Assembly (NCBI GenBank): GCA_963778755.1
Contig: CAVZVJ010000004.1
Location: 18,836-82,835 of the forward strand
Length of the DNA: 64,000 nt
Direction: 5' to 3'
From: an uncultured Acidobacteriota bacterium
GTDB lineage: Bacteria > Actinomycetota > Acidimicrobiia > Spongiisociales > ZC4RG35
Part shown: in pieces, positions 2,737 to 56,567 of the stretch
Numbering within the stretch: position 1 is the stretch's first letter
How the letters are laid out: each line of letters opens with the position of its first letter
Notes under the pieces: generated by a model
Databases searched by the model: none
Seen by the model: only the letters and a program-made list of their open reading frames with translations
What the model was told of the DNA's origin: nothing
Translations under genes and position numbers: made by a program

Positions 2737-3273
2737 TCAGCCGACCGAGAGCTCTTCGATGACCAGGGCGGGCTCGGGGATCAGGTCGAGAAGTTCGGTG
2801 TTCAACCGGTAGAAGATGTCGGCAGGCAAGGAGCCCTGCCCGTGTCGACGATTGATCTCCTTGAGCAGGCTAAGCCACCTGCCGCACGCCTGGGCCGGTG
2901 TTACCGCGTCCGACTTGAGCGCTTCCCGGGTCTCAACGATGCGCCGTTCCAGATCGGGGAGATACTCCTCGTCGGATCTGGCTTTGACGACAGGTTGCTT
3001 CGGCTTCACCACGGCCAGGCGACGGTGCTCCTTGATCCCTAGTTCTGCCGCGAACCGGGACGACTCGCTCACGATGAGAACCACATCCTCGCCATCGACC
3101 TTCATGTGAAAGCCGTCGGACATGCTGATCACATCGAGGTCCTCGAGTCGAAGGACCGCCACTGTCCGATCCCCGGAGGTCAGGGTCATCCGCTCGTGTT
3201 GGATGTCGATCTCTACCCCAAGAGGGAGTTTGGCCCGACCAGGCAAGTGAAGCCTTGCGGTGAACGTGGACAT
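2737..3273 (-). CDS. conserved hypothetical protein, paralog A (N-terminal beta domain plus C-terminal helical domain)
   Basis: ATG 3273 is preceded by GGAGGG, and the longer listed ORF (to 3345) has no RBS. It is clearly paralogous to 54736..55338: the first ~80 residues are about two-thirds identical by eye, and both share the C-terminal LKEINRRH...LLDL motif. Confidence 0.7.
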   Translation of the reverse strand: MSTFTARLHLPGRAKLPLGVEIDIQHERMTLTSGDRTVAVLRLEDLDVISMSDGFHMKVDGEDVVLIVSESSRFAAELGIKEHRRLAVVKPKQPVVKARSDEEYLPDLERRIVETREALKSDAVTPAQACGRWLSLLKEINRRHGQGSLPADIFYRLNTELLDLIPEPALVIEELSVG

Positions 3274-3437
3274 CGTCCCTCCGTCTCGTGTTGGCCGGTC
3301 GGTCCGGGTGATCATGTCACTCCTGTAATCGTCCAGTTGGTGCACCTGGGTTACGGCGATCTCGTGAGATGAGGAGAGGGGGGCAGGCCACTGGCCTGCC
3401 CCCCTCTCCTCGGCTCCGTTTGGTCGGAGATCTGTGG

Positions 3438-4988: not shown

Positions 4989-4992
<4 letters not shown>
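4441..4992 (+). CDS. ECF-type RNA polymerase sigma factor (sigma-70 family)
   Basis: Region 2 reads DDLAAETFLQVARNIHRFEG...FRSWVFVIAHRRLIDIRR. Region 4 reads LTEEQRDVLSLRIIGNLTLEETADVVGKRVGAVKALQRRGL. Confidence 0.9.
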
Positions 4993-5855
<863 letters not shown>

Positions 5856-9375: not shown

Positions 9376-12300
9376 GTGCGGAGGAGAGTCGAGATTCACA
9401 CGTTGAGATACCGGGCGCTCGGCCCGATCACGGTCGAGCTCGACGGTCATGAGGCGAAATTGGGCGGTCTCCGCCAGCAGATGGTGCTCGCGGTACTGCT
9501 CCGCTCGGCCAACCGGGTCATCTCCCAGGACAACCTGATCGACTCGGTCTGGGCCGGAGAACCACCCGAAGCGGCCCGGGCCACCGTTCAGAGCTACATC
9601 TACAACCTCCGTCGCGTCCTGGGGCCTGATGCCATCCTCCGACGCGGCGATGGCTATCTGATCGAGGTCGACGCATCCACGTTCGACGTGCTCGCCTTCG
9701 AGAAGATGCGTCGAGACCGGGGCAGAGCTCTTGAGGACGGAGCCCGCCTCTGCCCGGGCAACCCTCGTTGCGGGGTTGGACCTTTGGTTCGGCAATGCCT
9801 ACGGCGGTGTCGACCACCCGGAACTCGATGCCGAGATCAGGCGTCTCGGCGAGATGCGAGTCACCGCCATCGAGACCCGAATCGAAGCCGACCTCGCCCT
9901 GGGCCGAGCCGGGGAGCTCGTGGCGGAGCTCGAGTCCCTGGTTCGGGACCATCCGCTCCGGGAGAGGTTCTGGGGCCAGCTGATGCTCGCCCTCTACCGG
10001 TCCGGGCGGCAGGCCGAGTCGCTCCGAGCCTTCCAGAGCGCCCGCGCCCATCTCGTCGACCAGCTCGGCATCGAGCCGGGTGCCGAGCTGGAGGACCTCG
10101 AGGCCCGAGTCCTCGGTCACGACCCTTCGCTGCTCCTACCCATCGAGGCCGAGGCCTCGATCGCCGGTGACCGAAGCCGTCGATCGATCCGTGGATATGA
10201 GCTGCGCGATGTAATCGGCTCAGGGGAGTTCGGTGTCGTCCACAGGGCCTATCAGCCATCGATCGGACGGGAAGTGGCTATCAAGGTCATTCGGGCCGAC
10301 AGCTCTAACGACCTTGCTTTCGTGAGTCGCTTCGAGAGAGAGGCGCAAAGGGTGGCCAACCTCGAGCATCCCCACGTGCTGCCGCTCTACGACTACTGGA
10401 GAGACCCGAGTGGCGCATATCTCGTGATGCCTCTGATGCGTGGGGGCAGCCTCGAGGACTCACTACGCGGAGGCGGTTGGAACCTCGAGCCGGCACTGCG
10501 ACTCCTCGACCAGGTGGGTGGCGCACTGGCGTATGCCCACCGCCGGGGGATGGTGCATCGCGACCTGAAGACGAGCAACGTCCTCCTCGACGAGGACGGC
10601 AACGCCTATCTATCCGACTTCGGGATAGCGGCACCCATCCCCGGGAACGCCGAATCGACGTCGAAAAGGCTGCTCTCTCCCGAGGAGGCCTCAGGTAAGG
10701 AGGCGACGTTGCGCACCGACATCTTCGCGCTCGGCGCCCTCACCTTCGAGCTCCTCGCAGGCGTGTCCCCATCAGGTTCGTCGCACATACCCGATCTGCG
10801 AGAGGCCCGTCAGGACATACCCGAGACGGTCGCGGCGGTCGTGGCGAGGGCGATGGCGACCGACCCGAGGGAGCGTTATCTCAAAGTCGACGAGTACTTG
10901 CGCGAGATTCGCCGTTCGGCCGGTGTCGACGTCGTCGCCGCTCCCGGGGTCGTGGCGACGCCGTCGGAGCCGATTCGCAATCCCTACAAGGGCTTGCGCG
11001 CATTCGCCGAGGACGACGCCGTTGACTTCCACGGCCGTGGAGCCCTGATCGAAGACCTGATGGCAGCGAATCGCCTCCCACCGGTTGGTCACCGTCGTCG
11101 GCCCCTCCGGGAGTGGGAAGTCCTCTGTCGTCCGTGCAGGGCTGATCCCTGCCCTGAGGGCAGGGATCCTCACCGACTCTCGTGACTGGCTTGTGACGGA
11201 CATGTTCCCGGGCTCGTATCCATTCGAGGAGCTGGAGGCAGCCCTGTCCCGTGTGGCGGTGCGAACGCCGGTGGGGATGCTCGCCGAGCTGAGCCAGCCC
11301 AACGGGCTGCTCAGGGTGAGCAAGCAGATCCTCCCCGGCGACGACTCCACCCTCCTGATCGTCATCGACCAATTCGAAGAGCTCTTCTCGACGGTCCGCT
11401 CCGAAGAGACCCGTCGCAGTTTCCTGGAGAACCTCATATCCGTAGCCGCCGACGAGCGGAGCCGGGTCAGGGTGGTGGCGACCATCCGCGCCGACTTCCT
11501 CGACCGTCCTCTGGCATACGCGGACTTCGCCGAAGCGATCGCCGATGGCATTGTTACCGTAGGGCCACCGACGCGGGATGGGTTAGCCCAGGCAGTCTCG
11601 GCTCCGGCCCGGATCGTGGGGTTGGACCTCGAGCCGGGGTTGGTGGGCCGCATCATTTCCGACGTCGAAGGCCAGCCGGGGGCCCTTCCCCTACTCCAAT
11701 ACGCCCTGACTGAGATGTTCTCTCACCGGGACGGGTCGACCCTGACCATCGCCGGGTACGAGGCCACCGGCGGCGTCGCCGGAGCCCTGGGCCGACGGGC
11801 GGAGGAGCTGTACGAGGGGTTGACCCCGGCGGGCATGCTGGCGACACGCGAAGTCTTCCTCCGTCTGGTGACAGTCGACGAGTTGGGCACCGTGACCCGG
11901 CGACACGCCCGACAGGCAGAGCTCGTGTCCCTCGCGGTCGACCGCGGCGGGCTCGAGTCTGTGTTGAAGGCCTTCGCCGGCTTCAGACTGCTCACCTTCG
12001 ACCGGGACCCGGTGACTCGTGGACCGACGGTGGAGGTCGCCCACGAGGCTCTTCTCAACGAGTGGCCGAGGCTTCACGGCTGGATCGAAGACGCCCGAGA
12101 GTCCCTCGTCCTGGCGCGCCGCGTAGGCGAGTCGGCTCAGGAGTGGGTCGAGTCGAAACGAAGACCCAAGCTATCTGCTTCGCGGTGTGCGTCTCGAGGA
12201 CGTCGAGACCTGGGTGTCGCGAGCAGACGTGGTGCTGACCAGCGACGAGTCCCGGTACATAGCGGCGAGCATCACACAGCGCGAAGCCGAGGTAGGGGCA

Positions 12301-18829: not shown

Positions 18830-20853
18830 CTAGGCCCCCCACCCGATGAGATGCCACACGGCGAGCTGGCCGACAACCATCAGTGCCGCGACAGCCAGCG
18901 CTGCGTACTCGCTTTTCACCAGCTTCGGCCACCAGCCTCTGAGCCATCCCACAACTACAAGAACCAGCGTCAAGCCGCCGAGAATGCTCAAGGCCAGCGG
19001 CAGGTGCATCGCGAGCCGCTCGACCAGCGGCAGCTGGAGCCAGCCCAGGAAACCGGAGTCGATGAGTCCGGGCATCCACACAATCAGGGCCACGGTCGTC
19101 AGCGTGATCAGGGCCAGGAACGTGGCGACCGTCGCCGAGATCCGCGGCCACAGCTGGGAGGCGGCCGGGACCGGGGTTGCGCCGGAGCGCGAGCGAGATC
19201 GGCGGAGGGCTCGAACTGCGGCAGCGATGAGCCAGGCGGCGGCCAGGACCGCGGCGGTCACGAGGATCGCCCACTGCCATGGTGCGGGACCGCCAGTGAG
19301 GCGCACCATCCTGATGCTTCGCCATGTCGGCACCGGACCCGAGAGGTCGAGCGTCTCACCATTCTCGGCGAGAAAGACACCGGGCGCGACCTCGACGAGA
19401 CGAAAACGTTCGAGCGTCCCATCCTCGTTGGCCTCGAAGTAGGGAGCACCGCCCTCCATCCAGAACCGGGCTGCAGGGGCGGTGGGGTCGATCACACCCC
19501 AAGAAGGCGCACCGTACGCTCCGACGGCAGGGAACCAACGCTCAGCTTCGTCACCGGTCGGATCCATGGCAGTGCTCTCGACCAGGGCTGCCAGGTCCGC
19601 CGGAGGCTGGAAGGAACCGCTCGGTTCCTGGGCCGAGACACGATCCGGAAGCCCCAGCAGCCGGTCGTGGTAGGGGCCGGGCGCTGCCAGCAGGTCACCG
19701 AGGATCGACAGCGCCAGGTCGCCCTGCAATTGGTGGTCCTCGGAGTTGGTGAGGACCGCGATCCCGATCCCCAACTGGGGGGCCCACCATATGTCGGAGA
19801 GGAATCCGTAGCCACCGCCGCCATGGTTGAAGAGATCCGGTGCCTGCCGCCAGCGGTTCCAGCGATGCCGAGTAACCCCAAGTGCGTATCCCGCCGGCGC
19901 GCCGGCGTACGGCGCTGGGACGACTCGCATCTCTTCCATCGACTGTGGGTCGAGGACTGCCATGCCGTCGATCGAGCCGTCGTTGAGCTGGAAGCGGAGA
20001 AACCGGGCCAGGTCGGTGGCGCTCGAGTACATGCCACCTGCGGCCGTCATCGGCTCGTAAGAGCGGCGGGGCAGGAAAAGGATCTGCGTGGCCCACCGCC
20101 CGGTTGTCGGCCGAGCGAATCGCCGACCGATCGAAGGTGCTGCGGCCCATCCCCAGCGGGTCGAGCAGGGAGTCGTGCATGACCTCGAGGGAACGGCTTG
20201 CCTTCGACCTGTTCGAGGATGTGGCCGGCCACGTCGATTCCGAGATTGGAGTAGGCGTATCCGTTACCGACCGGGAAACGCAACCAGGTGTCGGAGATGC
20301 TGCGGACGTGTGCCTCGAACTCGCCAGGGTCGAGCTCGTTGTTGTTTCCCACGGGCGCCTCCATGGTGAAGCCTGCGGTGTGGCTGAGGAGCATCCGAAG
20401 TGTGATCTTCCGCTCCGGGTGCTCCTCGAAGGCGCTGTGAACGGTGAACTCGGGCAGGTAAGTCGTGATCGGCTCGTCGAGGTCCAGCTGGCCGGACGCG
20501 ACCGCCTGCATGACCGCGGTCGCCGTGAACAGCTTCGACATCGACTGGATGCTGAAGATCGTGTCGGGGGTGACCTCGGCGGAGTCCGGTCCATCGAGAT
20601 GGCCGAATCCCTCGACCCACAACACCTGATCAGCGTCGACGAGGGCAACGGCGAGACCGGGGATCCCCTGTTCCGCCATCAGGCCCGGGATGCGAGCCCG
20701 GTACTCCTCGATCACCGCTGCCGCCGCATCCGCCCCAAGGGTGTCTCCCTGCGAGCCCGACGCAGGGATCGGACCTGCAACGGAGAACGCCAGAGCCGCA
20801 GCGACGGCACCAATCATGCATCGACGAAGCGGTGGCGCAGGGGCATCAATCAT
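18830..20853 (-). pseudogene. serine hydrolase (beta-lactamase / PBP family) with a C-terminal 4-TM domain, with the frame broken twice (+1 each)
   Basis: SMSK (SxxK) and YSN motifs lie in ORF 20047..20853. The sequence continues as LEVMHDSLLDPLGMGRSTF in a second frame (~20190-20065) and as SYEPMTAAGGMYSSATDLARFL...HGGGGYGF in ORF 18830..20050. The tail has four hydrophobic helices. Confidence 0.75.
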
Positions 20854-31819: not shown

Positions 31820-34502
31820 TCAGACGCGGGCGCGGTCCCGTCTCTTGCCGCTGGTCACCGCCACCGCCTGGAGTCGGCTGCTCACGTTGAGCTTGGCCAG
31901 GATCGCCGACACGTGGTGTCCGGCCGTCTTCTCCGAAATGAACAGGCTCTCTGCGATGGCTGCATTGGACAGCCCCGCCTGCATCAGTGACAGCACCTCG
32001 GCCTGACGAGCTGTGAGCCCGGCCGGGTTGGCACGGGTGGATTTGCGCTCTCCGCGGGGCACGCTCTTGACGCCGCGGCGCTGCAGTTCGTGTCGAAGGC
32101 CACGAGCGACACCGTCAGCGCCCAGTTCGGAAAGCGAGGAAAAAATCTGATCTAGGTCGGCGCCGGGGGCCAAGGCCCGGCAGATCGTGGCCTCGGTGGT
32201 GTAGCCGGCGCGATCCCAGGCATCTGCGGCCTCTAAGAGCTTGCCGGTCTGTTCCAGGCCTGCCGCGCCCGGCAAGTCCCCTGCGGGTGGGTCGATGCCG
32301 GTGCGCATTGCCCAGAACCCCACCATGGCGCGTCCCCAGTCGTCATCTGTCCAACCCGGCAGCTTCTGGGCGTCCTCAAGGAGGGGCTTCGCCTCTGACA
32401 GCTCCATGACTCCGGTCCAAGCCGCCTGCAGTGCGAGGATCGCAGAGACCCGGACGATGTCGAGGTCGGTGGTGCCCCGGGCCCGGTCGAGGGCGCTCTC
32501 CACTTTCAATTCCGCCCCCGGGGCGCCGCGTCGAACCTCGAGGCTCGCCGCAATCATCAGGGAACCGACCTCGGTCTGGCGGCATGTGGTCTGGCCTAAC
32601 ACCATCGCCAGTTCCCGGTCCGCGTCCTCCCAGCGACTGCTTGCCACGTCGATCTCGGCCAGATTGGCGATCGCCGTGATGTACCAGGCGTCGAGCTCAC
32701 GGGCGGTCGTGAACTCCACCAGCTTTTCGTTGAGCTCCCGGGCTCCGGGCAGATCAAAGAACCAGATGTGACTGAGTGCCGTGTTATTGATCGACCTTGC
32801 AGTCTCCTCGTCGACGCCGTGGTTCAGACCGAGAGTGGTGGCCGCTTCGATCACTGCTCGGCCCCTGATGTCACCGAGCAAGCTCAGGGAGGTGCCGACT
32901 GTGGTGGCGGCATGGACCTCCACTCTCGCCGAGCCAGCGGCCTGGGCTTGAGCGATCGCCCGATGCCCTTCTTCGATCGCTTCTGCGTGGCGGCCTTCGA
33001 CCATGGCTACCCATGCCCGAGAGGCCAGGGCCAGAGCGAACTCTTCGGAAGGCGGCTCATCCTCGAGGACTTCGATGGCGAGCCCTGCGACCTGCTGGGT
33101 GGCCTCGAGGTCGTTGTCCCGTGACATGTAGTAGGAGAGCCACGCCCGGGCCCCTGCTATCTCAATCCTGTTTTCGGCCATCTCCACCAGCTCAGCGGCG
33201 TATCCGCAAGCTTCGACCGCGGCGTTTATCAGACAATGCTCGTGGGCGGCCGCGAGAAGGGTCTCACGCAGCTGGCTGACGGTCATCCGTCCCCGGAAGA
33301 GGAGGGCGTTGGAGTAGTGGTACGCCGCCTGACGGTGAGCGCCTCCACGGGCCGAGCTCTCGGCCGCCTGTCAGCGAGTAGCTGACCGACTTCACATCGT
33401 CCTGGGCACCGAGACTGTGATAGGCGAGACGGGAGAGATCGGGGCGCACGTCAACATGCTCTTCCAGCTGCTCCAGCAGCCGGCGATGGAGGTCGCGCCT
33501 CAGCGCCGGTGGCACCGCCGCTTCCAGGCTGTGCCGGATCAGATCGTGTCGACACGTGACGAGACTGTCCGAGGAGACCAGGAGCCTCCGCTGCACCGCC
33601 AGGTCGACATAACTGCCGGCCGCGGGGTCCAACGCCAGCAGGGTATCCAGCGACACCCCGTCCGGAGACAATGCCACCGAATAGAGGGTCTCCAAGGCCT
33701 TGGAGGAGAAGTTGGCGGCGCGGGCCAGGACGGCATTGCTGATATTTGACGGGAGCTTCGAGTCGGGGTGGCGGATCACCTCTTCGACCAGGAAGGGATT
33801 TCCCAGCGTCGCCGCGTGAATCCGCGTCGGGTCGATATCGAGCCCCCGGGTCATTGCCTCCACGCCGGACGGGGTCAAGGCGGGCAGCTCGATCCTGGTG
33901 GCGGTTGGCCCCAGGTCGGCGACCACCAGGTGCATCGGGTGGGCGAGGTCAAGGTCCTCGGGTCGGTACGTGCAGATGAGCAGGCTCTTGGTGGGTGCGA
34001 TCCTCCGTCCCAGGTAGCGCAAGAGGCCCAGCGTGGCTTCGTCCGCCCAGTGGACATCCTCGACGACGAGCACGATTCGGTCCCCCTTGAGCAGGTCCAG
34101 CATCCCGGCGTACACCGCCGTCCGCCCCGAGCCCGTTCGTATGTCGTCGCAGAGCTCTCCTGGCAGATCGTCGAGCAGATCGAAGAGGGGGGAGAAAGCC
34201 GTTGGGATTCCCACCGGCTCGCAGGCCGCCTCCAGGATCCGGTGACGATGGTCGAGGCCGCCGAGGAACGCCTGCAGCAGGGAGGTCTTGCCGAATCCGG
34301 CCTCGCCCGAGAGCAGGACGGCTCTGCCCACGTCAGCATCGGCCAGGTCGAAGAGGCTGGCCAGCTGCTCCTCCCGTTCCACCAGCGAAACCGGCTCGAT
34401 CACAGGGATCGAGGGTACACCGACGGGTCGGAGCATCCCTGACCGCCCGCGCCCTGGGGTGGTCAGCCGGACTTGTGCTCCCTCCGAGGCAAAAGTGACC
34501 AT
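31820..34502 (-). pseudogene. LuxR-family transcriptional regulator with an N-terminal AAA/P-loop ATPase and TPR-like middle region, with the frame broken once (+1)
   Basis: Has Walker A (GEAGFGKTS), VVEDVHWADEATL and a C-terminal LuxR HTH (LTARQAEVLSLMQAGLSNAAIAESLFISEKTAGHHVSAILAKL). The frame switches near 33361-33372: ...YSLT then AAESSARGGAHRQAAYHYSNALLFRGRMTVSQL. ATG 34502 follows GAGGGAG. Confidence 0.8.
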
Positions 34503-35852: not shown

Positions 35853-36257
35853 TCACATGCCTCGGTAGTGGTGGACGGTCACGCCGGGTAGATCTGCGAA
35901 TGCTGATTCATCGGCGGTGAGCAGTGTGCGGCTCGTGGCGCGGGCCGTTGCCGCGATCAATAGGTCATGGGCGCCGCGGGGTCGCCCGGTCTGCCTTACT
36001 GCGACCAGGAGCTGAGCGTGTTCGAACGCGATATCCCGGTCGTAGGGAATGACTGGAATCGAGGCGAGGATTTCGTCCACATAGGCCTGCCGGTGGGCTT
36101 TGGCATCCTGGGAGGCGAGTTCGACTCCTACGACCAATTCGGCCACTGTGATCGCAGCGATTGCGACGTCGTCGTCTTCGTGGATCAGGTCATCGACATC
36201 GACGGCTGCTCGCTCGGCGTCGATCAGGAAAGTGGTATCGAGAAGGATCACACTCAC
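35853..36257 (-). CDS. vapC: type II toxin VapC (PIN-domain ribonuclease)
   Basis: Reads ILLDTTFLIDAER...ITVAELVVG...AHDLLIAATA...LLTADE. It overlaps the antitoxin stop by 4 nt. Confidence 0.85.
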   Translation of the reverse strand: MSVILLDTTFLIDAERAAVDVDDLIHEDDDVAIAAITVAELVVGVELASQDAKAHRQAYVDEILASIPVIPYDRDIAFEHAQLLVAVRQTGRPRGAHDLLIAATARATSRTLLTADESAFADLPGVTVHHYRGM

Positions 36258-36496
36258 GATCTGTTGTCGATCTCAACCAACTCGCGGACACGTGAGAGTT
36301 CCTCCGTCCAGGCCGAATCTGGTCTGTGACGCTTCAGGATTTCCTTTACCTCGGAACCACGGCCCTTGGTGATCGGCTTGAGATGTGCCACGGCCTTGCC
36401 ACGTCGAACGATCGTGTAGTGCTGGTTGCCGTGCTCGACGCTGTCCAGCACATCAGAGAAGCGTCTCGCGGCTTCAGTCGCTGAGATATCCGGCAT
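36254..36496 (-). CDS. type II antitoxin, Phd/YefM family
   Basis: Reads ISATEAARRFSDVLDSVEHGNQHYTIVRRGKAVAHLKP. Confidence 0.85.
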   Translation of the reverse strand: MPDISATEAARRFSDVLDSVEHGNQHYTIVRRGKAVAHLKPITKGRGSEVKEILKRHRPDSAWTEELSRVRELVEIDNRS

Positions 36497-36709: not shown

Positions 36710-37546
36710 ATGAGAAGAGCCCGTCGCATCATGTTGATGCTGGTCGTGTTTGCTATGACGGTGATGACCGTCGCGCCTGCATCAGCGGTCACGAATGGAG
36801 AACTCGACGGCAACGGCCATCCGCAAGTGGTGCTGGTACTGATGGAAGTGAACGGCGCACCTGCCTTCAGATGCACTGGAACATTGATCGCTCCTACCTT
36901 TGTCGTAACAGCCGGCCACTGCGCCGGAGCACCTGGCGAATTCTCGGGGATGCGGGTATTCACGGAGTCGAATGTCGACCAGGGACGCCTCAACGGAACC
37001 AACAACTATCCGTTCGGGGGAGGTCCCAATAGTGTCGAAGCCATTCGTTGGGCGTCACATCCCCTCTACCCGACAGCGCCGTTCTACGTCCACGATGTGG
37101 GGATGATCGAACTGGCTCAGCCAATCAATGCACCCTATGCAAGCCTTCCCGCCGTCGATTCTCTCGACGTGTTGGCCAACCAGCGCGGACAGCAGGATGT
37201 GACCTTCACCTCGGTGGGCTACGGGTTGCAAGCAGCACAGCTGAACAACCCAACCCCGCAGGCTCACACCGTGGGTGTCAGGGTTCGCATGGTGTCCCAC
37301 CCCAAACTGGACCAGATCAATGTTCCCGGCCAAATCGGGGACTTCGCACTCTTGCTGTCGAACAACACCAAGACCGGCGGTACCTGTTTTGGGGATTCGG
37401 GTGGACCCAACTTCCTGAACAACTCCAACACCATCGCTGCGGTGACCTCCTTCGGCAAGAACAACAACTGCGCCGGAACCGGAGGTGTATTCCGGCTGGA
37501 CCGACAGAACGTTCAAGACTTCATCAACGACTTCATGGGCCTTTGA
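36710..37546 (+). CDS. secreted trypsin-like serine protease (S1 family)
   Basis: Has a signal peptide (MLMLVVFAMTVMTVAPASA) and the motifs TAGHC, DVGMIEL and CFGDSGGP. Confidence 0.85.
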   Translation: MRRARRIMLMLVVFAMTVMTVAPASAVTNGELDGNGHPQVVLVLMEVNGAPAFRCTGTLIAPTFVVTAGHCAGAPGEFSGMRVFTESNVDQGRLNGTNNYPFGGGPNSVEAIRWASHPLYPTAPFYVHDVGMIELAQPINAPYASLPAVDSLDVLANQRGQQDVTFTSVGYGLQAAQLNNPTPQAHTVGVRVRMVSHPKLDQINVPGQIGDFALLLSNNTKTGGTCFGDSGGPNFLNNSNTIAAVTSFGKNNNCAGTGGVFRLDRQNVQDFINDFMGL

Positions 37547-37565: not shown

Positions 37566-37601
37566 AAAGAAGGGGAGGGCCTTCTGGCCCTCCCCTTCTT
37601 T
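37566..37601. terminator. strong bidirectional intrinsic terminator
   Basis: There is a perfect 16-bp stem, aaagaaggggagggcc with ggccctccccttcttt, around a 4-nt loop, with A/T tracts on both flanks. It lies between the protease stop (37546) and the sheath stop (37649). Confidence 0.85.
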
Positions 37602-37648: not shown

Positions 37649-39130
37649 TCAGTCGTCGTCTCCGTCTCGCCACTGCCCGATGCGGAAGATCACGAACTCG
37701 GCGGGGCGGATCGGGGCGATGCCGATCAGGACGATCAGCCGCCCATCGTCGATGTCGTTCTGGGTCATCGTGTCTGGCCCGCAGCGGACGAAGAAGGCAT
37801 CCTGAGATCGGTTGGCGGGGAAGGCACCCTGGGCGAACACGCCATAGAGGAAGTTGTCGATCTGGCCCCGCACACGGGCCCACAACGTCTCGTTGTTCGG
37901 TTCGAACACCGCCCACTCCAGCCCCCGGCGGATCGACTCCTCGAGGAACAGCGCCAGCCTCCGCACGTTGACGTACTTCCACTCGGCGTTTCCAGCCCCG
38001 GCTCTGGTTCGGGCTCCCCAAACCATGGTGCCTCGACCGGGCAGGGCTCGTATGCAGTTCACCCCCAGCGGGTTGAGCTCGTCGATGTCGGTCTTAGTGA
38101 GCGGAATCGATGGGATCGCCCCCGAGAGGGAGGCACTGCCGCCGGCCGGTGATCGCCACACCCCCTGATTCAGGTCGAGTCGGGCCAGCATCCCGGCCAC
38201 TGCCCCGGAGGGGGCGAACTCCCGAACTCTTCCCCCTCGCATCGGGTCGGCACGGCTCACTCGAGGGAAGTAGAGGGCGGCGTCCTTGCCCTCGACGAAG
38301 CCGGCTGCGCCGAACCTGGCATCGGTCACGGTGTGCCAGGTGGAGGGCGGATCAAGGATCACCATCGCCCTCCGCTCCCCTGCGTACCCGATTGCAGCGG
38401 TGACCACCCCGAGAGGCACGCCGGCGGTGGTCGAGTAGGGACAGAGGACGATCAGGTTCACCAGCTCGGATCGGTCCAGGGCATAGATCCCCCGACCCGA
38501 CTCCCGCATCCCGGGCCCGGTGTATGCGGAGACTCCGAATCGGCCATCACGGCCTCCGGTGGCGGTGACGGTGACCGGGAGCCGCGGCGGCAGGCTGGTG
38601 GGGAGGGGCAGCCTTGCCCGTATCAGCGCCGACTCTTCGAGCGCCCTGTCGACACGGCGCGGGCTCCGCGGCGCCAGGGACAACCCGGCGAAGCTCTCGA
38701 TCAGCCCGGTGCCCCGGTCGGTCACTGTGAGGTCGAACCGGTTGCGGGGAAGCGGAGCAATCGTTCCTTCCAACTTCGAGCCCCACGTTCCGGGGCTGGT
38801 CGCCTCCAGGACCAGTCGAGAGTTGCCACGCCCGAAGTTGAGGGTGGCCAGGTGGTCGGGCGCAGGCAGATGGGCTCGAACTACGACCGCTCGTCGTCCG
38901 CCCTGCTCGAAGAAGTCCCGGATCGAGTGGCCCAGGTCGCTCTTCAGCCAGAGCCCCCCGAAGAGACGCTCGAACTCGGGAAACGAAGTGATCAGAGTCG
39001 GGGTATCGACCGGGCCTCGCTGGGCACGGCCCACGAAGGCGGTAGTCCCTGTGTCCACGCCGACGATCGCCTTTGGAGGCGGCGTCACCTCTTCGATGTA
39101 GACCCCGGGTGTCGTGTAGCGGGCGGTCAT
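37649..39130 (-). CDS. contractile-tail sheath family protein (phage / eCIS-type), solitary
   Basis: The N-terminus reads MTARYTTPGVYIEEV...GVDTGTTAFVGRAQRGP...ITSFPEFERLFGG. The C-terminus reads MTQNDIDDGRLIVLIGIAPIRPAEFVIFRIGQ. Both are sheath hallmarks as I know them. Confidence 0.8.
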   Translation of the reverse strand: MTARYTTPGVYIEEVTPPPKAIVGVDTGTTAFVGRAQRGPVDTPTLITSFPEFERLFGGLWLKSDLGHSIRDFFEQGGRRAVVVRAHLPAPDHLATLNFGRGNSRLVLEATSPGTWGSKLEGTIAPLPRNRFDLTVTDRGTGLIESFAGLSLAPRSPRRVDRALEESALIRARLPLPTSLPPRLPVTVTATGGRDGRFGVSAYTGPGMRESGRGIYALDRSELVNLIVLCPYSTTAGVPLGVVTAAIGYAGERRAMVILDPPSTWHTVTDARFGAAGFVEGKDAALYFPRVSRADPMRGGRVREFAPSGAVAGMLARLDLNQGVWRSPAGGSASLSGAIPSIPLTKTDIDELNPLGVNCIRALPGRGTMVWGARTRAGAGNAEWKYVNVRRLALFLEESIRRGLEWAVFEPNNETLWARVRGQIDNFLYGVFAQGAFPANRSQDAFFVRCGPDTMTQNDIDDGRLIVLIGIAPIRPAEFVIFRIGQWRDGDDD

Positions 39131-39168
39131 CGTCGAGGACGCTATCGGTCTGTGCCAGGATGCGGGTC

Positions 39169-39996
39169 ATGACCATCCCCCTCGGAATCTTTGGCTTCTG
39201 GCGAATGGCGCGGAACACGACCCCGGACATGGCCCGGGAAGCGGAGACCCTCGGCTATGGAGCCATCTGGGTGGGCGGTTCCCCGAGCGGCGACCTGGTC
39301 GACGTGGAGGCCCTGCTCGAGGCGACGGAACGGATCCCGGTGGTCACCGGGATCGTCAACATGTGGCGGGAGCCGGCCGAATTGGTCGCCGCCTCCTATC
39401 ACCGGATCGCCGAGCGTCATCCCGATCGATTCGTCTTGGGGGTGGGGATCGGGCACCGGGAGGCCACTGCTGAGTACCAGGCGCCGATGGCCAAGATCGA
39501 TGACTACCTGACCCGCCTCGATCGAGCCGAGGTGCCTCGGGACCGGATGATCCTCGCCGCCCTCGGACCTAAGGCGCTCCGGGTCGCCGCCGAGCGCACC
39601 GCGGGGCCGCACCCCTATCTGACGACCCCGGCTCACACTCGCTATGCCCGGGAGTTGATCGGCCCCCGGCCATTGCTCGCACCGGAACACAAGGTCACCA
39701 TCGACGCCGACCCGGAGCGGGCAAGGGCGACCGGGCGGAAGGTGGTCTCCTACTACCTGGACCGGGTCAACTACCGCAACAACCTGATCCGCAGCGGTTG
39801 GGCAGAGGACGACCTGACCGATGGTGGCAGTGACGCACTGGTCGACGCATTGGTGCTCCATGGCACACCGGAGCAGGTGGCGGTCGGGCTTCGGGCCCAC
39901 CTCGACGCCGGGGCCGACCACGTCGGAGTCCAGGTGCTGGGGGAGGATCCGATGCCATCGTTCCGTCGTCTGGCGGAAGTCTTGATGTCAAGCTAG
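39169..39996 (+). CDS. LLM-class (luciferase-like) F420-dependent oxidoreductase
   Basis: Reads MTIPLGIFGFW...AREAETLGYGAIWVGG...VVTGIVNMW...LGVGIGH...GADHVGVQVL. ATG 39169 was chosen because the upstream part of the listed ORF overlaps the sheath gene. Confidence 0.8.
   Translation: MTIPLGIFGFWRMARNTTPDMAREAETLGYGAIWVGGSPSGDLVDVEALLEATERIPVVTGIVNMWREPAELVAASYHRIAERHPDRFVLGVGIGHREATAEYQAPMAKIDDYLTRLDRAEVPRDRMILAALGPKALRVAAERTAGPHPYLTTPAHTRYARELIGPRPLLAPEHKVTIDADPERARATGRKVVSYYLDRVNYRNNLIRSGWAEDDLTDGGSDALVDALVLHGTPEQVAVGLRAHLDAGADHVGVQVLGEDPMPSFRRLAEVLMSS

Positions 39997-41016: not shown

Positions 41017-41017
<1 letters not shown>
40010..41017 (-). CDS. dihydroorotate dehydrogenase-like (TIM-barrel flavoprotein) protein
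   Basis: Reads LRTTYLGMTLAHPVVPSASP...VIASLNG...LELNIY...FNRFYQPDIDL. Its ATG shares a base with the PFOR stop. Confidence 0.8.
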
Positions 41018-44589
<3,572 letters not shown>

Positions 44590-54735: not shown

Positions 54736-55338
54736 CTAGACGGGATCGGGAATCGGGTCCGGCAACAGGTCGAGGAGCTGGGTGTTCAACTTGTGGAAGA
54801 GCTCGGACGGCATGGAGCCCTCCACATGTCGGCGATTGATCTCTTTCACCAGCTTCAGCCACTCGGCGAATGCATCCGCCGGCGACACCGAATCTGAGGT
54901 CAGGGCATCGGCAATTTGGGTGATCCGAAGCTCGACATCGTCGAGTTGCTCCGACGCCGGCGGGGGCTTGGCGACAGCTCGAGGCGTCTTGACCTGATTG
55001 TTTGGCTTCGGGGACTGCGTCTCGCGCTCCACCGGGGAAGGCCGGCGGCGGGTCGGCTGTTCCGTCTTAACCACCGCTGAACGTGTGGGGCGTTTGTCAA
55101 TGCCGAGAGCGGCAGCGAATCGCTTCGAGTCGGTGACCGTGAGGACGATCTCCTCGCCGTCGACTCTGATGTGAAACCCGTCTGACAGAGAGGAAATATC
55201 GAGCTCTTCGAGGGGCCAGACCCCCACCGTTCGGTCTGCAGCCGTCAAGGTCATTCGCTCATGTCCGATGTCCACCTCCACGCCCATCGGCAGCTTGGAG
55301 CGGCCTGGAAGGCGAAGCCTTGCATCGAACGATGACAT
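54736..55338 (-). CDS. conserved hypothetical protein, paralog B of 2737..3273
   Basis: ATG 55338 follows GGTGGAGGAA. MSSFDARLRLPGRSKLPMGVEVDIGHERMTLTAADRTV... and the C-terminal LKLVKEINRRH...LNTQLLDLLPDP parallel paralog A. It has a longer Pro/Lys/Arg-rich linker. Confidence 0.7.
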   Translation of the reverse strand: MSSFDARLRLPGRSKLPMGVEVDIGHERMTLTAADRTVGVWPLEELDISSLSDGFHIRVDGEEIVLTVTDSKRFAAALGIDKRPTRSAVVKTEQPTRRRPSPVERETQSPKPNNQVKTPRAVAKPPPASEQLDDVELRITQIADALTSDSVSPADAFAEWLKLVKEINRRHVEGSMPSELFHKLNTQLLDLLPDPIPDPV

Positions 55339-56358: not shown

Positions 56359-56411
56359 CCGGCTTCTGGATGTGTGATTGACTCGACCTCCCCGGGTATG
56401 TTCGGGAAGCG

Positions 56412-56567
56412 ATGAACGACTCGCCTGATTGGACGGACTTCAACGAGTCCGATCCGGGGATCACTTTCCTGCAGTTGTTCGCCTTCGTCGCCATCGTGGG
56501 CATCCTCGGTGCGGGGCTGATTTCCATCTGGCAACGCAGGCGGAGACGTCGCCGACCGATCCCCTAG
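56412..56567 (+). CDS. possible 51-aa small membrane protein
   Basis: Not in the ORF track because it is under 60 aa. It reads MNDSPDWTDFNESDPGITFLQLFAFVAIVGILGAGLISIWQRRRRRRRPIP*, that is one TM plus a poly-Arg tail. Coding status is unproven. Confidence 0.3.
   Translation: MNDSPDWTDFNESDPGITFLQLFAFVAIVGILGAGLISIWQRRRRRRRPIP

Follow-up and report, generated by a model that had tools for sequence, protein, structure and literature searches.

A sheath gene of the contractile injection system (CIS) type stands alone in the bacterial DNA analyzed here, a 64 kb stretch of contig CAVZVJ010000004.1 (hereafter the window), with no gene for a tube, baseplate or spike anywhere in that stretch. It belongs to a small clade of sheath genes that are solitary in each of the seven genomic contexts in which they are seen, and members of the clade share replacements at positions that are otherwise conserved throughout the family. 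To our knowledge, sheath proteins are known only as motors, in phage tails, tailocins, extracellular contractile injection systems (eCIS) and type VI secretion systems (T6SS), and are always encoded together with a tube and a baseplate. The explanation that we favor, and to which we give about an even chance, is that the sheath has been domesticated, has ceased to power injection and probably forms tube-less assemblies. The gene is located as follows:

37649..39130, minus strand: stand-alone CIS-type sheath gene; 493 aa product, ATG start, cytoplasmic, without a signal peptide

Identity and predicted structure of the sheath protein

The open reading frame (ORF) at 37649..39130 encodes a genuine full-length, three-domain sheath protein of the CIS type. 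An initial annotation of the window had quoted N-terminal and C-terminal sheath motifs, both of which are found in the 493 aa product, and its assignment is borne out by profile searches, by matches to solved structures and by the predicted fold. Two Pfam sheath families match above their cut-offs, PF04984 (Phage_sheath_1; 33.8 bits, cut-off 31.4) and PF17482 (Phage_sheath_1C; 45.8 bits, cut-off 26.9), which is the family-level search that the annotation had called for, and PHROG 23 'tail sheath' matches residues 1–484 at 3e-57. Among proteins of solved structure the best sequence match is the sheath of Halogeometricum borinquense (9ezm; phmmer, 1.6e-84), with Streptomyces coelicolor Cis2 (8bky/8bl4) at ~1e-70 and further matches to the Anabaena, PVC, AlgoCIS and AFP sheaths; phage T4 gp18 is matched at only 1e-10. 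By these sequence comparisons, the closest solved structures are CIS sheaths and not phage sheaths. NCBIfam has no model matching the protein, and in Pfam it matches only the phage/CIS sheath families and not the type VI TssC/VipB family; the Pfam scan likewise finds neither TssB nor ClpV among the window genes.

An AlphaFold2 model computed from a 63-sequence alignment has a pLDDT of 89.5 and a pTM of 0.87, with disorder confined to the extreme termini. Foldseek aligns this model with 9ezm across all three domains (TM 0.78–0.79, E 2.5e-41, probability 1.0, 34% identity), S. coelicolor Cis2 is the second target, and the best 50 matches listed are all sheath chains. The structure prediction that had been proposed as a check thus returns a sheath fold.

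Absence of other CIS or phage genes

The window is ordinary chromosome. Its gene set consists of 62 genes identified with a codon-usage model and two ORFs added by hand, and a Pfam scan of all 64 finds no tube, baseplate (gp25-like, gpJ-like), spike (Phage_base_V/VgrG) or PAAR gene, and no tape-measure, cap (Pvc16_N), CIS-type AAA+ or phage gene. AAA-type Pfam matches are limited to a STAND-type LuxR regulator (AAA_16) and ABC transporters, no tRNA gene is present in the window, and there is no integrase gene nearby. The genes that are present include those for Tad-pilus proteins, an ECF sigma factor, PD40/WD40 proteins, a Ser/Thr kinase, hydrolases, aldo-keto reductases, ABC transporters, the LuxR/AAA_16 regulator, a VapBC pair, PFOR and a DHOD-like partner, PadR and LigD.

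Two canonical clusters served as positive controls, one in Streptomyces tanashiensis (L015; sheath 47% identical) and one from the same metagenome project (L016; sheath 48% identical). In both of them a PF06841 tube gene lies directly downstream of the sheath gene and is followed by baseplate, spike, Pvc16_N, AAA+ and eCIS_core genes, and the two tube proteins are 86% identical to each other. With all 24 proteins of these CIS clusters as tblastn probes, the two clusters readily detect one another, but nothing is found in the window or in any solitary locus of its relatives (described below), the best tube match (E = 0.025) falling inside a hydrolase gene. No tube gene (PF06841/CIS_tube) is present in the 64 kb or within ±10 kb of the sheath in relatives L001–L010 and L017. 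Pfam and tblastn thus agree with the original observation that the 64 kb contain no tube, baseplate, tape-measure, AAA+ or phage gene, and the suggestion made with it, that the sheath might belong to a split locus, can be dismissed for the 37 kb to one side of the gene, for the 25 kb to the other, and for ±10 kb in the relatives. As far as tested over these intervals, the sheath belongs to no CIS gene system. A role in a defense system was also considered and finds no support, since PADLOC has no match for the sheath or for five neighboring genes.

Relatives and their genomic contexts

A search of 5.8 billion proteins, of which the best 120 matches were listed, gives close relatives of the window sheath at 83, 82, 81, 79, 79, 72, 68, 67, 66, 61, 55 and 55% identity among the matches listed, below which there is a large mass of canonical CIS sheaths at ≤50%. 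An exact look-up in a contig index gives no match for the window protein or for P0054. The solitary clade is small, with about 20 clusters at 90% identity (50–83% identity within the set). In a neighbor-joining tree of 63 sheaths all of the solitary ones form a single clade, in which a core (the window protein and P0002–P0012) has P0014/P0016/P0020 as its sister group.

Ten assemblies represent seven different neighborhoods: the syntenic loci of the window, L001, L002 and L010 share one; a second is that of L003–L005; and L006, L007, L008, L009 and L017 each have their own. The sheath gene is solitary in all seven, with no CIS gene within ±10 kb by either precomputed Pfam matches or the tblastn probes, and neither Pfam nor PHROG links the unannotated ORFs flanking the sheath in L006, L008, L009 and L017 to a tail or CIS family. 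Relatives therefore do keep a solitary orthologue, a point that had been left for checking when the gene was first noticed.

The closest phage sheath is 30.6% identical to that of the window, the closest plasmid-borne CIS sheath is 44% identical, and IMG/VR includes no viral contig with a close relative. These values indicate that the ancestral source of the gene was a cellular, actinobacterial-type CIS, and not a prophage from which a scrap was recently left. A prophage remnant or myovirus tail was rejected as a source, with phage sheaths at ≤31% identity, no relative on a viral contig, and no phage genes or tRNA, as was a plasmid-borne CIS, for which the best match is the one at only 44%.

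Selection and degenerate copies

Nei-Gojobori dN/dS ratios (omega) for the three closest unsaturated pairs of sheath genes are 0.178 (0.13–0.24), 0.237 (0.18–0.32) and 0.175 (0.13–0.23), where the ranges are bootstrap 95% intervals; syntenic neighbor genes in the same genome pairs have values of 0.06–0.23. Omega is 0.17–0.26 in every globular domain of the sheath, the remodeled one included, with domain boundaries that are approximate, being taken from an alignment to Cis2, whose domain 3 is unresolved. Open frames of ~490 codons persist down to 50–61% identity, at which synonymous sites are saturated. By these ratios (0.18–0.24, with 95% bounds <0.33) the sheath is clearly under purifying selection and not a dead relic, which is the outcome of the dN/dS comparison suggested at the outset.

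Three lineages contain degenerate copies. L010:10001-11462 (CAVVCY010000001.1) is an 80%-identical orthologue disrupted by a 1 nt frameshift around codon 272, and the protein called there (P0064) has 275 aa; the copy may be a true pseudogene, or the frameshift may stem from Nanopore assembly, and the site is no obvious homopolymer. L014:9812-10351 (plus strand), on a 2.58 Mb contig labeled 'uncultured Actinomycetota' (CAWJJD010000001.1), is an ORF of 179 aa in which ~60 unrelated residues precede a sheath C-terminal domain of the solitary clade; this makes up the last ~116 residues (TMTQNDIDDGRL ... RIGQW ... DDDDD) and is 59% identical to that of the window, so that the ORF is a remnant left by truncation or else a derivative from the clade that keeps the C domain alone. 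In L008 (GCA_046128625.1), as in cluster P0016 (six members, all 468 aa), the N-terminal strand-exchange arm is missing and the rest of the protein is intact, and in L008 a remnant, 'PGV-PPDPISGV', is located at 9970-10001, where it immediately follows the upstream methyltransferase gene's stop codon. These frameshifted, truncated and arm-less copies indicate that the sheath gene is dispensable in some lineages. The proposal in the initial annotation that the window sheath is the last survivor of a decayed injection system is probably right as history; as the description of a dying gene it applies to the L010, L014 and L008 copies, and not to that of the window.

Clade-specific remodeling

When 49 canonical sheaths from several phyla are aligned, 142 columns show conservation of at least 95%. 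Canonical sheaths keep 97.8% of these on average (minimum 86.6%), and the solitary proteins keep 77–84%, with P0014 at 90%. Columns are lost at 17 of 57 positions in the C-terminal inner domain and C-terminal arm, versus 12 of 85 elsewhere, and five replacements (L400I, D451G, T455M, V465L and K475R) are present in all 11 of 11 core members. The net charge has also shifted: canonical sheaths have a mean of -9.8 (range -35 to 0), compared with +2.5 for the core clade and +11 for its sister group. The solitary clade has gained an acidic C-terminal tail (e.g. WRDGDDD), and its N-terminal linker reads EEVT-PPP..IVGV, compared with EE.PSGVRTITGV in canonical sheaths; in Cis2 it is the length of the N-terminal linker that decides whether the sheath is contractile (PMC10066040). 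All 11 core members have the motifs of the two strand-exchange arms, PGV[YH]I.E and PAEF[VL], which are disordered in the monomer model. The pattern points to a sheath in which the constraints of tube, baseplate and contraction have been lifted or replaced and the fold is still kept.

Possible roles of a solitary sheath

Domestication, one of the options raised in the initial annotation, is favored by the single clade, the seven contexts, the dN/dS values of 0.18–0.24, and the clade's own remodeling. The rest of an actinobacterial-type CIS would have been lost, with the sheath gene surviving alone in Acidimicrobiia-like bacteria of soil and sediment. Having nothing to propel, the sheath would no longer be a contractile motor and would be retained for a different cytoplasmic role. 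It would most probably self-associate through the retained PGV[YH]IEE N-terminal and PAEF[VL] C-terminal strands to give tube-less rings or tubes with contracted geometry, and such a polymer could act as a static scaffold or compartment-like assembly, possibly expressed together with the neighboring F420-dependent oxidoreductase. Sheath proteins lacking a tube or baseplate are known to self-assemble into polysheaths of contracted geometry, with 25 N-terminal residues being dispensable (PMC6357053). A more specific version, which we offer tentatively and with some doubt, is that the sheath fold was exapted in a lineage of Acidimicrobiia as a tube-less, non-contractile cytoplasmic scaffold or cytoskeleton-like polymer. 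A new partner or cargo would be bound by its remodeled, basic lumen-facing domain and its acidic tail, and the gene would be expressed in a manner coupled to the F420-dependent redox enzyme.

Several observations weigh against domestication. The strand-exchange arms are the least constrained parts of the protein in the solitary clade (omega ~0.47–0.48), whereas in the canonical pair L015/L016 they are among the most constrained (0.17–0.22), in a comparison of arms and domains that involves small samples and non-independent pairs; relaxed arms weaken the case that a canonical handshake polymer is being maintained. Some simple prophage sheaths do not polymerize alone and stay monomeric (PMC9230969). 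An RNA-seq look-up shows no RNA run containing the sheath gene, sheath omega is at the relaxed end of the range for neighboring genes, and there are the degenerate copies in the L010, L014 and L008 lineages. The neighbor-joining tree that unites the solitary sheaths carries no bootstrap support values, the carriers are all metagenome-assembled genomes (MAGs) or metagenome contigs, some of them Nanopore-based, and inspection spanned 64 kb of a 254 kb contig and ±10 kb in the relatives.

The solitary sheath could instead be an accessory that acts in trans, supplying or modifying a CIS cluster, either sheath-less or complete, that is encoded elsewhere in the genome. In favor of this, the full three-domain fold and both terminal strands are kept, the nearest canonical relatives are actinobacterial CIS sheaths, the specialized paralogues Afp2–4 and Pvc2–4 provide a precedent, and the extent of the contig and of the relatives that was inspected leaves room for such a cluster. 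We nonetheless regard this as unlikely. In each of the two control clusters the sheath gene has the tube gene as its immediate downstream neighbor, the solitary state has been held in seven contexts over deep divergence, and the replacement of invariant residues, mainly in the inner domain, together with the reversal of charge would be unexpected in a sheath that still fitted a conserved tube, one that is 86% identical between distant hosts. The best 120 sheath matches include no second sheath from four carrier contigs (254,225, 155,564, 1,274,371 and 406,940 nt), although this is weak evidence, since the list ends at that number.

It is improbable that the gene is a slowly decaying relic, the last open frame of a lost CIS, functionless and not yet destroyed. 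Such a relic might well have lost ~20% of its family-invariant residues, have an omega above that of most of its neighbors and relaxed terminal arms, and be found in degenerate form in L010, L014 and L008; but intact ORFs of ~490 codons are present in at least nine independent assemblies, down to 50–61% identity with saturated synonymous sites, and omega is 0.18–0.24 overall (upper 95% bounds ≤0.32) and 0.17–0.26 per globular domain. Five replacements at family-invariant sites are moreover fixed in 11 of 11 core members, and the promoter region is nearly invariant. We see a similarly small chance that the sheath has acquired a new function that does not involve a polymer. It would then be soluble, either monomeric or a small oligomer, and might serve in binding or regulation, with the acidic tail recruiting a partner. 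Against this, all 11 core members retain the core motifs of both arms, and many isolated sheath proteins self-assemble by default (PMC6357053), whereas the handshake-mesh arms being the least constrained parts, the intact ORF in six cluster members of the L008 lineage that lack the N-terminal strand, the acidic tail and charge reversal as new features, and the monomeric state of some prophage sheaths in isolation (PMC9230969) would all be consistent with it.

A sheath that has been inherited, selected and remodeled by itself would constitute a natural experiment on a self-assembling fold without contraction. If domestication is correct, it would join the few phage structural proteins that have been domesticated for cellular roles, and on the more specific version above a contractile injection system would have given rise to a new kind of scaffold or cytoskeleton-like element in bacteria; stable tube-less sheath polymers would be of interest as protein nanotubes too. 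Surveys of CISs in genomes discard loci that lack tube or baseplate genes (PMC12210884), so that stand-alone sheaths are filtered out by design.

Comparison with known systems

The solitary sheath is certainly a member of the sheath family, with its own conserved sequence signature. Cis2 of the S. coelicolor system CIS-Sc (8bky, 8bl4, 9gtp, 9gts) is likewise a single-protein, three-domain cytoplasmic sheath from an actinobacterial host, sharing the N-terminal strand and linker and the C-terminal PAEF strand, and Streptomyces-type sheaths are 47–50% identical to the solitary sheath over 99% of its length. Cis2-type genes differ in being part of a cluster of ~20 genes, with the tube gene directly downstream and then baseplate and spike genes, none of which is present in the window, and the solitary clade departs from Cis2-type proteins in the replacement of ~20% of invariant residues, in being neutral or basic and not acidic, in its acidic tail, and in its remodeled N-terminal linker. 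The CIS/T6SS-like sheath of H. borinquense (9ezm) is the best match in both sequence and structure, but is archaeal, encoded in a cluster, and part of a working membrane-anchored system; this contractile system mediates contact-dependent antagonism (PMC11566945).

The polysheaths of T4 gp18 and FV3 gp053, in which an isolated sheath protein forms stable tubes of contracted geometry (PMC6357053), illustrate the mode of assembly proposed for the solitary sheath. They are, however, by-products of recombinant or aberrant expression of tail genes, whereas the solitary state described here is natural and conserved. Afp2/3/4 and Pvc2/3/4 are in the same family (E 1e-27 to 1e-47) and show that sheath paralogues can specialize, but they are encoded side by side within a CIS cluster and co-assemble around the tube. 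Parts of contractile machines are also encoded away from their main cluster in the orphan hcp/vgrG islands of T6SSs, but these are tube and spike genes and serve the main cluster in the same genome. We know of no previous description of an orphan sheath gene, and full-text literature searches found no account of a conserved stand-alone one.

Host and occurrence

Two of the MAG records that carry orthologues (L009 and L010) are labeled 'uncultured Acidobacteriota'. The named relatives of the PFOR gene adjacent to the sheath region (window 41017-44589) are 69–87% identical and are all from Acidimicrobiia or Actinomycetota MAGs, the window PFOR gene is 88% identical to its counterparts on the L001 and L010 contigs, and the gene content is actinobacterial-looking, with F420 enzymes and SCO4226-like and Rv1352-like proteins. 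The host is thus probably Acidimicrobiia-like, in conflict with the Acidobacteriota label, which is probably a taxonomic error. Metagenomes of soil and freshwater sediment contain the organism, though rarely. In four DNA runs, short-read contigs have exact matches to parts of the sheath gene at a depth of 2–4, with none spanning its junctions.

Gene neighborhood and transcription

The features immediately flanking the sheath gene are as follows:

36710-37546, plus strand: trypsin-like protease gene (PF00089) with a signal peptide, convergent with the sheath gene
37566..37601, no strand: perfect hairpin with a 16 bp stem and 4 nt loop, between the convergent sheath and protease genes
39131..39168, no strand: divergent intergenic region of 38 bp, between the sheath and F420-dependent oxidoreductase genes
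39169..39996, plus strand: TIGR03620 F420-dependent LLM-class oxidoreductase gene, divergent from the sheath gene (NCBIfam 332 bits, cut-off 219.8; Pfam Bac_luciferase)

This arrangement matches the initial annotation, which had described a convergent secreted protease across a 16-bp-stem hairpin and an F420-type oxidoreductase diverging from a point 38 bp away; both are present where it placed them, the latter with a TIGR03620 score of 332 bits. The hairpin at 37566..37601 is predicted to fold with a dG of -38.8 kcal/mol on the minus strand and -41.3 kcal/mol on the plus strand (z scores of -6.0 and -7.0, respectively), and none of 200 shuffled sequences is equally stable. It was not reported by a scan for consensus promoters and terminators, which miss it because it has no separate T-run, and it is a probable bidirectional terminator closing the sheath transcription unit.

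The start of the oxidoreductase gene is 38 bp from the sheath gene if ATG 39169 is used, or 29 bp with ATG 39160. Of the 38 intergenic positions, 32 are invariant among the window, L001, L002 and L010, a near-invariance that contrasts with a synonymous divergence of ~0.5 per site among the same four. A sigma-70 consensus scan of the 38 bp region finds nothing, but a TANNNT-type -10 element (TAGCGT) is located 8 nt 5' of the sheath ATG, and there is no Shine-Dalgarno sequence. By comparison with actinobacterial promoters, this arrangement suggests that the sheath transcript is leaderless or nearly so. The 38 bp region is probably a shared operator/promoter of two back-to-back, possibly leaderless genes, and, with the strong hairpin at the other end, it delimits the sheath gene as a self-contained monocistronic unit. 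The divergent pair of sheath and oxidoreductase genes is kept in the window, L001, L002, L010 and L009, and in L008 the two are 4 kb apart. The F420-dependent oxidoreductase is thus the most recurrent neighbor of the solitary sheath by gene order, and the two may be co-regulated.

When ORFs lying no more than 6 kb from the sheath were compared all-against-all across ten loci, there was no universal family that could be a conserved hidden partner. The genes that recur near the sheath do so only within shared synteny, and comprise the luciferase-like gene, AAA_16 regulators, a 105 aa protein, paralogues of 171–200 aa, and a Tle1-like lipase. An 81 aa ORF that overlaps the sheath start in L003–L005 is without a homologue elsewhere and was set aside as probably spurious.

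Two ~200 aa paralogues without a Pfam family are encoded in the window at 2737-3345 and 54736-55338 (both minus strand), and are 52% identical to each other. A homologue (54–61% identical) lies directly downstream of the L008 sheath (L008:11528-12043), and others are 5–9 kb away in L001 and L002; their proximity to sheath genes probably reflects synteny rather than partnership. The DUF2235/T6SS_Tle1-like lipase gene is 6 kb from the sheath in L001 (L001:2730-4064) and directly downstream of it in L009 (L009:11582-12659), where it is 75% identical and frameshifted; the window has just a 54 aa C-terminal remnant of it (56373-56534, plus strand).

Among the other genes of the window, a VapC (PIN) toxin gene and an overlapping Phd/YefM-like antitoxin gene (35853-36496, minus strand) are 1.2 kb from the sheath and are absent from the syntenic L001 and L002 loci, and this pair and the protease gene look to have been inserted between the sheath and its ancestral downstream neighbors. 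The LuxR-type STAND regulator (AAA_16 and GerE) is present as two overlapping ORFs (31820-33286 and 33264-34502, minus strand) but is a single ORF of 892 aa in the syntenic L002, reflecting a frameshift or an assembly indel in the window contig. Another indel may account for a beta-lactamase-family serine hydrolase that is split between 18830-20050 and 20047-20817 (minus strand) with a 4 nt overlap. One ORF corresponds to the first half of the Pfam model (N-terminal), and the second half (C-terminal) falls in the other, where a membrane-spanning tail is also encoded. Finally, we note that a putative anti-sigma-like protein with a weak match to DUF5667 is encoded downstream of the ECF sigma factor gene (4989-5855, plus strand), and that its C-terminus is a long Gly-Asn dipeptide repeat (GNGNGSGNGNGNGNGNGNGNG).

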